Source of the DNA: Actinomycetota bacterium | GTDB taxonomy: Bacteria; Actinomycetota; Acidimicrobiia; IMCC26256; JAENVU01 | Reading direction: 5' to 3' | NCBI GenBank assembly: GCA_016870395.1 | Contig: VGBT01000001.1 | Location: forward strand, 4,376-68,375 | Length of the DNA: 64,000 nucleotides | Shown here: positions 9,539-12,500 of the stretch, piece after piece | How the letters are laid out: every line of letters starts with the position of its first letter | How positions within the stretch are numbered: position 1 is the stretch's first letter | Position numbers and translations under genes: made by a program | The notes under the pieces: model-generated | What the model saw: the letters and a program-made list of their open reading frames with translations, nothing else | What the model was told of the DNA's origin: nothing | The model's database searches: none

Positions 9539-12500
9539 CTAGATGTCGAGGAAGCGGACGTCGGTGGCGTTCTGTTGGATGAACTCGCGGCGAGCCTCGA
9601 CGTCGTCGCCCATGAGCCTCGAGAAGATGTCGTCCGCGATCGCGGCCTCCTCGACCGACACGCGCAGCAGCGAGCGCGTGGCCGGGTCCATCGTGGTCTC
9701 CCAGAGTTCCATGTAGTCCATCTCGCCGAGACCCTTGAACCGCTGGAACTCGATCTTGCGGTCGGGGTTCTCGACGACGAACGCGGCCCGCGCCGACTCG
9801 TCCTTCAGGTACACCTTCTCCTTGCCCACCGGCACGGAGAACAGTGGTGGCTGCGCGACGTAGACGAACCCCTGCATCACCATCTCGGGCATCTGCCGGT
9901 ACAGGAACGTCAGCAGCAACGTACGGATGTGTGCGCCATCGACATCGGCGTCGGTATTTTCTCCCAGGACGCCGCCACTCGACCCGACGACGAAGTTGTG
10001 GTCATCGGCGACCGACAGGTCGTACACCGGACCGTCGAAGGGCGTCGCCACGTTGGACCGCACGGGCAGGGCGATCAGGTCGTCGGAGATCTCGACGTAG
10101 CGCGGGCCGGGGCCCTTCCGGCCCTGCGCGATCCGTTGTCGCCGCTCGTCGGCGTTGGCGGTCTTGCGCCAGAGGTGCTCGAGCCGTGCGACCTGGTAAG
10201 CATGCACCACGGTGATATTCGTGCGCGGCCGCATCGACAATGGGTTTGGGGCCGGGTCATAGGTCGACCGCGACGCCACGACGCCGAGCTGGCCCAGCAG
10301 GTAGCAGACGCCGTCGGCAAGCGCGCTCGACGCGGCCGTGAACGACAGCCGGTTCAGCGCCGTCTTGCATCCGTCGCCGAGGAAGTAACCCTCCAGGTAC
10401 GCGAGGCGGCAGGGCTCGTCGACGTTGAGCATCAGGTCGGGGACACGCTTGTCGTGCGCGCGTCCGGCCAGGCCGAGTGCCTGGATCATGCGGGCCGCGA
10501 TCGCGGAGTGGAAGTAGAGCTTGCGGGAGCTCGGGAGCCGCTTGTCGACGTGCAGCCGCGGCGTCTCGCCGAAGGTCTCCTCGATCGCTTCGACGATCGA
10601 GGGGAGGTAGGGCTCGTCGTCCTCGACGAGCGAGAGCGCCACCTGCGACCCGCGCGCGAGCGTGCCCTCGGCCGTGTACCAGCCGAGGAAATAGCAGAGC
10701 GCCTCGGTCACCGGGAGCATCCGGGGTACGGCCCGGTCCCGATGGGCCTGCGGCACGAGCTCGACCGCGCGGTCGAGGAGGAACACGTCGTCCCAGCTGA
10801 GCTCGTCGACGCGCCTCGAGCGCCCGACACGTCGCCAGCGGCCGTTGCCGGACTCGTCGGGGAACGAACCCCTTCGCTCCACGTGCAACGGGACCGTGAG
10901 CGCGTCGTCGGGCCACGTCGTGCCCAGCATTGCGAGGTACGCCGCTAGCACCGACTGGGCCGGGCGGCCGCGACCAGTCTCGAACTCCGAGACGGTGCAG
11001 GCCTGGCGGTGCCCGATCGCCTCGGCCATCGCCTGCTGGGTGATCCCGAGAGCCCGACGGCGCGCGGCGAGCTGCCTCCAGGTCGATGCCGGCAGCTCGA
11101 CCCGCGCCTCCGGGTCGTGCTCGCACGCGCTGTGCTCACGGGAGAGCGACCGAACCGATTCCCCGTCGACCCGCAAGCCGCGACCGACACCGGCGGTGAC
11201 GAACAGCTCCAGGAGGTCGAGCTCGCGGGTCGCCACCTCGGGAGTCGGCAACCGCCGCGGCGCGACCACCAAGTCTCCGGGCACGATCTGGTCGCCGGGG
11301 CGCGTCGTGATGCGCCCGTTGTCGTACACGTGCACCGCGTGGCCTCGGGTCACCGAGACGGCGCGGCCGTACGCCGTGGTGATCCGGTGCATCCAGCCGC
11401 GATAGTGGTGGCGGATCACCTGCTTCAAGGGTGAGATTCGCGGTGCGCGGCCGAGCCGATCGACCGAGACCGTCGAGATCGGCGGAACGTCGACGCCCTC
11501 GGAGAGCCAGTAGTCGACCTCGGGACCGATCTCGACCAGGCGCAGCCGGCCTTCTTCGTCGGTCAGCAGCACCGGCTCACGGCCGTCGACCGAAAGAAGG
11601 ATCACCTTGCGGTACCGGGCCTTCTCGAGCTCGAATTCCTCGCCGATGCCTGCGCCGATCGCCGTGATGAGCGCCTGGATCTCCTCGTTCTTCAGCATCT
11701 TGTCGAGGCGCGCGCGCTCGACGTTGAGGATCTTGCCGCGGATCGGCAGGATCGCCTGGTACTCGCGGTCACGGGCCTGCTTCGCAGGGCCGCCGGCGCT
11801 GTCACCCTCGACGATGAACAGCTCCGAGCGTTCCGGATCGCGCGACTGGCAGTCGGCGAGCTTGCCGGGCATCGACGCCGAGTCGAGCAGGGACTTGCGG
11901 CGCGTGAGGTCGCGCGCCTGGCGAGCAGCGACGCGCGCGCGTGCCGCCTGCGTCGCCTTCCCGACGATCTGCTTCGCCTCACCCGGATGCTCCTCGAGCC
12001 ACTCCCCGAGCTTCTCGTTGGTGGCGCGCTCGACCAGCGAGCGCATCTCGGTGTTGCCGAGCTTGGTCTTCGTCTGGCCCTCGAACTGCGGGCTGCGCAG
12101 CTTCACCGACACGATCGCGGTGAGACCTTCGCGGATGTCCTCGCCGAGGAGGTTGACGTCCTTCTCCTTCAGAAGTCCCTTGCCCCGCGAGTACTTGTTG
12201 ATCGCGTTGGTGAGGGCCTTCTTGAAACCCTCTTCGTGCATCCCGCCCTCGGTGGTGGCGATGTTGTTGGCGAAGCTGTGGATGCCCTCGTAGTACCCGG
12301 TGTTCCACTGCATCGCGACGTCGACCTCGGAATCGTCGGTCGTGTCCTCGAAGGAGATCACGCGCTTGAAGATGGGCTCCTTGGTCGCGTTGAGGTGCTT
12401 CACGAAGTCGACGATGCCGCCCGCGTACCTGAAATTCTGTTCCGTGACGGGGTCGGTGCGCTCGTCTTTGAAGCGGATCTCGAGCCCCTTGTTGAGGAAG

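Follow-up and report, generated by a model that had tools for sequence, protein, structure and literature searches.

Inteins that begin with serine and are followed by serine or threonine (Ser1/Ser+1 or Ser1/Thr+1) splice through oxyesters and carry an additional NX motif upstream of block B, a histidine preceded by arginine or lysine that sits close enough to Ser1 for a hydrogen bond and is required for splicing (Pasch et al. 2023, PMC10189870). The same study names PI-TkoII and the Mja TFIIB intein as carriers of this combination of residues. Some homing endonuclease (HEN) inteins, such as TliVMA and PI-TkoII, also contain accessory DNA-binding domains that resemble a helix-turn-helix (HTH) (Beyer and Iwai 2022, PMC8966425). 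In a 2015 survey, 33 GyrB inteins were counted, distributed over Actinobacteria, Chloroflexi, Cyanobacteria and Proteobacteria (PMC4760082). Here we analyze an intein within the gyrB gene on a stretch of 64,000 nucleotides from an actinobacterial genome (contig VGBT01000001.1), referred to below as the window. We consider it very probable that this element is a bifunctional class 1 intein of the cysteine-independent Ser1/Thr+1 oxyester type, which is inserted one residue ahead of the Mg-binding D-x-D-x-D cluster of gyrase, is capable of standard splicing and homing, belongs to an old allele, and tolerates a glutamate (Glu545) at its penultimate position.

The gyrB open reading frame (ORF) occupies window positions 9539-13078 on the minus strand and encodes 1179 amino acids (aa) according to the ORF list. 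Codons 496-1041 (window 9956-11593) constitute the 546-aa intein, as determined both by script and by direct reading of the DNA. The N-terminal junction reads aag gtg atc ctt ctt / tcg gtc gac (K V I L L / S V D; here and below the slash marks the junction) and the C-terminal junction reads ctg gga gaa aat / acc gac gcc gat (L G E N / T D A D), the intein ends within the host being VILL/SVDGREP...GVLGEN/TDADVDG. The N-extein (codons 1-495, window 11594-13078, minus strand) comprises the GHKL ATPase, the transducer and the first part of the Toprim domain and ends in ...RYRKVILL; these assignments are based on Pfam HATPase_c, DNA_gyraseB and Toprim (residues 419-495) and on the NCBIfam gyrB models (residues 2-496). 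The C-extein (codons 1042-1179 and the stop codon, window 9539-9955, minus strand) begins with Thr+1 (9953-9955) and contains the acidic cluster of Toprim and the C-terminal domain, as judged from Pfam DNA_gyraseB_C (residues 1107-1168) and from the alignment of the spliced protein to its E. coli counterpart.

Removal of the intein in silico restores an ordinary gyrase subunit. The resulting protein of 633 aa is matched by TIGR01059, the gyrB equivalog model, in one uninterrupted stretch (residues 3-633 to model positions 1-639 of 639, 944.3 bits), whereas the unspliced precursor matches it in two stretches with 917.8 bits, and the NCBIfam gyrB models break exactly at precursor residue 496. 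The exteins score above the cutoff of the equivalog model, and the spliced product aligns to E. coli GyrB (3nuh_B, RYHSIIIM-TDADVDGSHIR) with no gap across the junction. The possibility that the segment is a conserved insertion that GyrB retains was rejected, as this segment shows both the profiles and the folds of HINT and LAGLIDADG and is absent from the GyrB models and from E. coli GyrB. A first-pass annotation of this DNA had proposed a 1179-aa gyrB ORF carrying a 546-aa intein at codons 496-1041, the excision of which would leave a normal 633-aa GyrB, and both proposals agree with the junctions as re-read in the DNA and with the comparisons above. Its description of the intein as splitting the DxD motif of Toprim is slightly off, because the insertion falls one residue ahead of that motif, with Leu(-1) on its N-terminal side and, on its C-terminal side, the Thr before the first Asp in T-D-A-D-V-D-G.

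The elements required for protein splicing are found at both ends of the intein. The HINT-N domain (aa 1-118, window 11240-11593, minus strand) contains Ser1 (tcg, 11591-11593), the NX residues R61-H62 within VIRHH, and T82 and H85 of block B within VTRGH; it was delineated from Pfam Intein_splicing, family alignments, an AlphaFold2 (AF2) model and Foldseek matches to PI-TkoII, TliVMA, PI-PfuI and the Mja and Mvu TFIIB inteins. The NX motif, V-I-R61-H62-H, aligns with the IRH of PI-PkoII, and the IRH is kept in the relatives displayed in our alignments. The HINT-C domain (aa 501-546, window 9956-10093, minus strand) contains D525 and H532 of block F (VYD525...H532NF) and block G (GGVLGEN), in which direct reading of the minus-strand DNA gives Glu545 at 9959-9961 (gaa) and Asn546 at 9956-9958 (aat). 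The Pfam Intein_splicing profile scored 38.7 bits (cutoff 35.8), Pfam LAGLIDADG_3 scored 35.2 bits (cutoff 22.5) and NCBIfam intein_Cterm scored 21 bits (cutoff 15.6). The profile search that had been suggested as a check of the first-pass annotation is thus positive for all three models, and the HINT blocks A, B, F and G and the two LAGLIDADG motifs that it had listed are borne out by profiles, alignments and Foldseek.

Class 1 inteins are characterized by an Asp at position F:4 of block F, commonly together with a His, whereas classes 2 and 3 lack a nucleophile at position 1; class 2 inteins of the KlbA type begin with Ala1, and class 3 inteins have Cys at F:4 and a Trp-Cys-Thr triplet (PMC4031507). 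The window intein has Ser1, the block B residues T82-R-G-H85, Asp525 at F:4, and Asn546 followed by Thr+1 within a HINT fold, and it departs from the class 1 pattern at the penultimate position (G:6), where Glu545 replaces a His that is highly conserved, though not obligatory. Class 2 and class 3 mechanisms were considered and rejected on account of Ser1 and of Asp525 at F:4. All six cysteines of the intein are non-catalytic. With Ser1, Thr+1, the NX pair R61-H62 and the block B His retained, the splicing intermediates would therefore be expected to be oxyesters.

To place the element within a family, 185,579 species genomes (one genome per species) were scanned with a sequence pattern and tblastn, which confirmed 499 relatives. 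Junction residues were tallied for the best 80 of these 499, which were fetched; the N-terminal junction could be assessed in 78 of them. Every assessable relative shares the insertion point (C-terminal junction in 80/80, N-terminal junction in 78/78) and ends in Asn (80/80), and Ser1 is present without exception (78/78). The +1 residue is Thr in 75 relatives, Ser in four and Cys in one. The penultimate residue is His in 62 (78%), Lys in 17 (21%) and Ala in one, and a similar spectrum is seen among the 18 database proteins with a readable C-terminal junction (His 13, Lys 4, Ala 1).

These counts change the reading of the junctions. Ser1 and Thr+1 are both canonical for this allele, being fixed features of it and not deviations. 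The first-pass annotation had listed Ser1, Glu545 and Thr+1 as three non-canonical junction residues; all three are indeed present, but the serine and the threonine follow the family rule and only the glutamate is rare. It had further suggested that the three residues together make the intein a candidate for an unusual splicing chemistry. That suggestion does not hold, with Ser1 (78/78) and Thr+1 (75/80) being normal and the penultimate position being plastic, and nothing in the sequence points to a new splicing chemistry.

Two relatives combine Ser1 with Cys+1: the locus L003 (CADDZP010000204.1), which ends in ...AHN/CDADVDG and keeps the NX Arg-His, and the protein P0004, which ends in ...AKN/CDADVDG and is truncated upstream of the NX motif. 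The GOS TerL intein has been described as the sole known Ser1/Cys+1 intein, and it has no NX His (Pasch et al. 2023, PMC10189870).

The Toprim-site allele is old and widely distributed. The best 80 relatives come from uncultured Actinomycetota (57-60% identity), many cyanobacteria, Herpetosiphon, Acidobacteriota, Chloroflexota and Desulfonema, and full-length identity to the window intein lies between 37% and 60%. When protein databases were searched with the intein, 23 homologues embedded in GyrB were retrieved from Acidimicrobiia, Deinococcota and cyanobacterial assemblies, and the best database protein is only 57% identical. No phage-borne relative was found among 50,697 phage records. Cultured carriers include Herpetosiphon, Anabaena cylindrica, Planktothrix, Microcoleus and Laspinema; these organisms grow with the intein in gyrB, and the allele must therefore splice in living cells. 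For the window intein, splicing is expected on the strength of these carriers and of its essential host gene. Our literature searches turned up no paper in which the Toprim-site GyrB allele is named or dissected, and one for 'gyrB-b' gave nothing relevant. The window element is thus a fairly divergent addition, with a rare penultimate residue, to an allele whose sequences are abundant in public genomes. In one relative, L005 (CAWAJR010000005.1, the source of protein P0001), the frame is shifted upstream of the middle of the intein and the public gene call begins inside the intein; a long-read indel error is the probable cause, but the gene may be genuinely disrupted.

The intein appears to have resided in its host lineage for a long time. 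Its GC content at third codon positions (0.90) is close to that of the exteins (0.93), and in the four closest genomes N-extein identities of 72-77% are accompanied by intein identities of 57-60%. A recent horizontal import is not supported by these data, the intein identity being highest in the same four genomes that have the most similar N-exteins.

The penultimate glutamate is the one junction residue that needs an explanation. In the nearest relatives (L001 and L002) the corresponding codon is AAA (Lys), and Glu545 (GAA) is therefore one A-to-G transition away from lysine; the preceding codon is GGA in the window and GCA in these relatives. A scan of 241 million metagenome records with the degenerate pattern E-N-T-D-A-D-V-D-G yielded one further case of penultimate Glu, L081 (JRHI01001266.1, match at 6799-6824, minus strand). 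This locus encodes an intact 1399-aa GyrB precursor that is 49% identical to the window protein, and its intein ends in ...NLCAEN/TDADVDG (...GDENFVAGNLCAEN/TDADVDG). L081 is both intact and distant, and glutamate has therefore arisen at this position at least twice in intact genes. Splicing in the absence of a penultimate His is documented, with the block F His suggested as a substitute (PMC5050341), and other penultimate residues in inteins are also attributed to Chen, Benner and Perler 2000, as cited in PMC5050341 and PMC4031507. Glu545 is best regarded as a tolerated change where other family members already have Lys or Ala.

The single transition that separates GAA from AAA also fits an error of sequencing or assembly, or else a mutation that is very recent and may be deleterious, with AAA as the true codon. 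No close relative has Glu, and the exact window proteins are absent from the public collections searched, which leaves the base with no cross-check. We nevertheless regard either possibility as very unlikely: assembled contigs seldom contain substitution errors, the adjoining codon differs as well, as would be expected of real divergence at 59% identity, and L081 provides an independent case of the same residue.

Several observations weigh against the reading of a standard intein with a tolerated glutamate. Penultimate Glu is found in none of the 80 genome relatives and in none of the 18 database proteins. The block F position, His532 in the window, is Glu in 76 of 78 aligned relatives, and a compensatory role of this histidine is not general, as most members with a penultimate Lys keep the block F Glu and in L081 the two residues are both Glu. 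Two further window residues differ close to the catalytic ones, namely A86 (window ~11336-11338, minus strand), which adjoins the block B His85 and is Ser in 78/78 relatives, and H88 (window ~11330-11332, minus strand), which is Phe in 91% of relatives; S86A and F88H could signal impaired or altered splicing and not neutrality. The splicing steps that we propose for this intein are, moreover, read from conserved residues. Finally, the view is limited to 64 kb of the genome, and a second copy of gyrB may lie elsewhere.

The block F and penultimate residues occur in the pairs (E,H) 60 times, (E,K) 16 times, (H,H) twice, and (H,K), (E,A) and (H,E) once each. General covariation of a block F His with a penultimate residue other than His was not found in these counts, and L081 has the pair (E,E). 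Compensation is therefore left as a possibility for this sublineage, in which His532 possibly buffers Glu545.

The same residues could be taken as signs of tuned or conditional splicing, in which Glu545, perhaps together with S86A, F88H and E532H, would slow the cyclization of Asn or make it dependent on pH or metal and thereby limit the rate of gyrase maturation or regulate it. Several window-specific changes do cluster around the active site, and the window pair of block F His and penultimate Glu reverses the usual family pair of Glu and His. There is also a precedent in the recombination directionality factor (RDF) intein of mycobacteriophage Bethlehem, where a change of the penultimate Gly to His led to precursor build-up and much slower splicing; its authors concluded that the penultimate residue influences the splicing rate and proposed it as a tuning point (PMC5050341). 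However, about 22% of the relatives have Lys or Ala at this position and follow no evident ecological pattern, L081 shows Glu but none of the other changes, and a slow intein would be costly in an essential single-copy gene. Tuned splicing is accordingly judged unlikely. We would give as little weight to a broader proposal, namely that the reciprocal swap of His532 and Glu545 together with S86A and F88H alters or gates Asn cyclization (for example by making it pH-sensitive or slower and so metering gyrase maturation), or that the HTH gives the excised intein, in addition to its part in finding the homing site, a role as a DNA-binding regulator.

Intein decay was also examined as an explanation and is not supported. 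The window intein deviates at 18 of the 146 positions that are conserved in at least 90% of relatives, which is typical of actinobacterial members (L001 and L006 deviate at 19 positions each, and L066 at 31). This bears on a further alternative, according to which the gyrB that carries the intein, a non-splicing relic, would be a paralogue in decay or not essential, and gyrase would be supplied by a second gyrB free of the intein. The loss of the penultimate His and of a Ser86 that is invariant elsewhere would fit such a relic, and a second copy may lie outside the 64 kb covered. The 1179-codon ORF is unbroken, though, its exteins remain above the gyrB equivalog cutoff, all nucleophiles and both acidic residues of the endonuclease are intact, the deviations at conserved sites are ordinary for the clade, and the gene lies at the canonical origin locus next to gyrA. 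A relic is extremely improbable in the light of these features.

The gene is found in an origin cluster in which dnaA, dnaN, recF, a DciA-family gene, gyrB, gyrA, a DUF3566 gene and tRNA-Ile lie on one strand, with yidC, jag and parA on the opposite strand on the other side of dnaA (the flanking parts of this region span window 13313-18139 and 6449-7128 on the minus strand and 18405-22464 on the plus strand). This canonical position identifies it as the housekeeping gyrB. The gyrA and dnaB genes are frequent intein hosts in Actinobacteria; in the window, gyrA (7049-9511, minus strand), with an ordinary length of 820 aa, and dnaB (44149-45819, plus strand), with a contiguous DnaB_C domain, are both intein-free. 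Rfam and tRNA scans of the window returned nothing that bears on the gyrB intein. In the same cluster the stop-to-stop dnaA ORF has 693 aa and its DnaA_N domain begins only at residue 224; the true start of dnaA therefore probably lies well downstream of the beginning of the ORF.

Between the two halves of the splicing domain the intein carries an endonuclease and an accessory region. The AF2 model, built from 23 aligned sequences, has a predicted local distance difference test (pLDDT) score of 91.1 and a predicted template modelling (pTM) score of 0.84; taken together with the alignments, it gives the domain order HINT-N (1-118), accessory region (119-290), LAGLIDADG (~291-500) and HINT-C (501-546). 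The top matches of the model in the Protein Data Bank (PDB), as found by Foldseek, are the five solved HEN inteins PI-TkoII, TliVMA, PI-PfuI, PhoVMA and PI-SceI, followed by free-standing LAGLIDADG enzymes and mini-inteins, and the best PDB matches at the sequence level are PI-PkoII/TkoII and the Mja TFIIB intein. The LAGLIDADG domain (window 10094-10723, minus strand) was assigned from Pfam LAGLIDADG_3 and from Foldseek matches to PI-TkoII, I-DmoI, I-Tsp061I and WhiA. It contains motif 1 (FLGWYTAEG, with E309), motif 2 (YLEGYFLGDG, with D407) and the conserved K382 and P385. Both LAGLIDADG helices end in an acidic residue (E309 and D407), as in two-motif monomeric endonucleases, and A308/E309/G310, G406/D407/G408 and K382 are invariant in the family alignment A2. 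The endonuclease is apparently intact.

The accessory region (aa 119-290, window 10724-11239, minus strand) was delimited from the secondary structure of the AF2 model as the part between HINT-N and the endonuclease, and it contains an HTH that went unmentioned in the first-pass annotation. The core of this HTH, of the XRE/Cro-C1 type (aa ~168-226, window 10916-11092, minus strand), is recognized by Pfam HTH_31 (27.7 bits, cutoff 27) and HTH_3 (25.9 bits, cutoff 23) at intein residues 173-226. A separate model of aa 120-295 (pLDDT 89.4) superimposes on the P22 c2 repressor with a root-mean-square deviation of 1.0-1.1 Å over 55 aa, and further fold matches are HipB, ClgR, the 434 repressor, DdrO and C.BclI. 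Owing to the shortness of the domain, Foldseek gives the HTH weak E-values (0.004-0.1). The HTH is retained in every family member that was examined, and we infer that it binds DNA.

A tentative order of events can be put together from these assignments. The 131-kDa precursor would be translated first, followed by an N-to-O acyl shift at Leu(-1)-Ser1, presumably aided by Thr82 and His85 of block B and by the NX pair Arg61-His62. The acyl group would then pass to Thr+1 by transesterification, Asn546 would cyclize, and an O-to-N shift would give the 70-kDa GyrB and a free 60-kDa intein. Most likely the LAGLIDADG domain (Glu309, Asp407) and the XRE HTH of the free intein would recognize and cut an intein-less gyrB at the coding sequence of ...ILM/TDADVDG; the predicted target spans ...CGCAAGGTGATCCTTCTT/ACCGACGCCGATGTCGATGGC.... 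Repair after the cut in this highly conserved Toprim coding sequence would complete homing.

The main value of these results lies in annotation, as the gyrB product is to be read as a 633-aa enzyme and a 546-aa mobile element. The window also provides one more natural Ser1/Thr+1 intein, in a subgroup that is prized by protein engineers because its splicing needs no cysteine; hundreds of equivalent family members are already available, several of them from cultured organisms. The penultimate position of the allele accepts His, Lys, Ala and Glu, and the allele is thereby well suited as a natural series for studying the part that the penultimate residue plays in Asn cyclization of oxyester inteins. 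With its conserved HTH placed between HINT-N and the endonuclease, the intein offers a clear natural case of the accessory DNA-binding domain proposed for homing inteins.

Among the known systems, the Toprim-site GyrB allele itself is the closest to the window intein. They have in common the insertion point [L/M]/TDADVDG, a length class of 541-570 aa, Ser1, the terminal Asn and Thr+1, as well as the domain order HINT-N, HTH, LAGLIDADG and HINT-C. The window intein is 57-60% identical to the nearest actinobacterial members and about 40% identical to the cyanobacterial ones, and it differs from the allele at large by the penultimate Glu, by a block F His in place of the usual Glu, by S86A and F88H, and by Leu in place of Met at position -1. 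The Ssp GyrB-type mini-intein is also a GyrB intein, but it occupies a different site (EGDSAGG/SAKQ) and has an unrelated sequence with the tail ...VYDIEVPHTHNFALASGVFVHN/S. The mini-intein (...VYDIEVPHTHNFALASGVFVHN/SAKQGRDR) co-occurs upstream of the Toprim-site element in many relatives (L013, L014, L017, L020, L025, L040, L050 and L058); the corresponding codons of the window gyrB (~425-435) hold no mini-intein, and Pro is found where the +1 Ser would be needed.

Outside GyrB, PI-TkoII/PI-PkoII (Pol-2 of Thermococcus kodakarensis, 2cw7) is the best match both in sequence (E 2e-27) and in Foldseek (E 2e-27, template modelling score 0.62). Like the window intein, it is a large HINT and LAGLIDADG intein with extra domains and an NX-type IRH that aligns to that of the window intein, but its host is an archaeal DNA polymerase and the identity is only 19%. 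The phmmer alignment between the two spans residues 33-132 and 291-538 and leaves uncovered aa 133-290, which hold the XRE HTH; PI-TkoII is not among the 50 best Foldseek matches listed for the isolated accessory domain. TliVMA and PI-TkoII share with the window intein a modular build that combines HINT and HEN with an accessory domain that resembles phage-repressor HTH folds. In the solved structures of these two inteins the accessory domain lies between the HEN and HINT-C, whereas in the window intein it lies between HINT-N and the HEN, on the N-terminal side of the endonuclease, and its HTH is recognizable by Pfam. Finally, the window intein retains Ser1, Thr+1, the NX [R/K]-His and the block B His of the cysteine-independent Ser1/Ser+1(Thr+1) inteins PolB16 OarG, Psp Pol-1, Neq Pol and Mja TFIIB. 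The latter reside in polymerase or TFIIB hosts, and several of them are split or mini-inteins, whereas the window intein is a contiguous 546-aa GyrB intein with a penultimate Glu and six non-catalytic cysteines.

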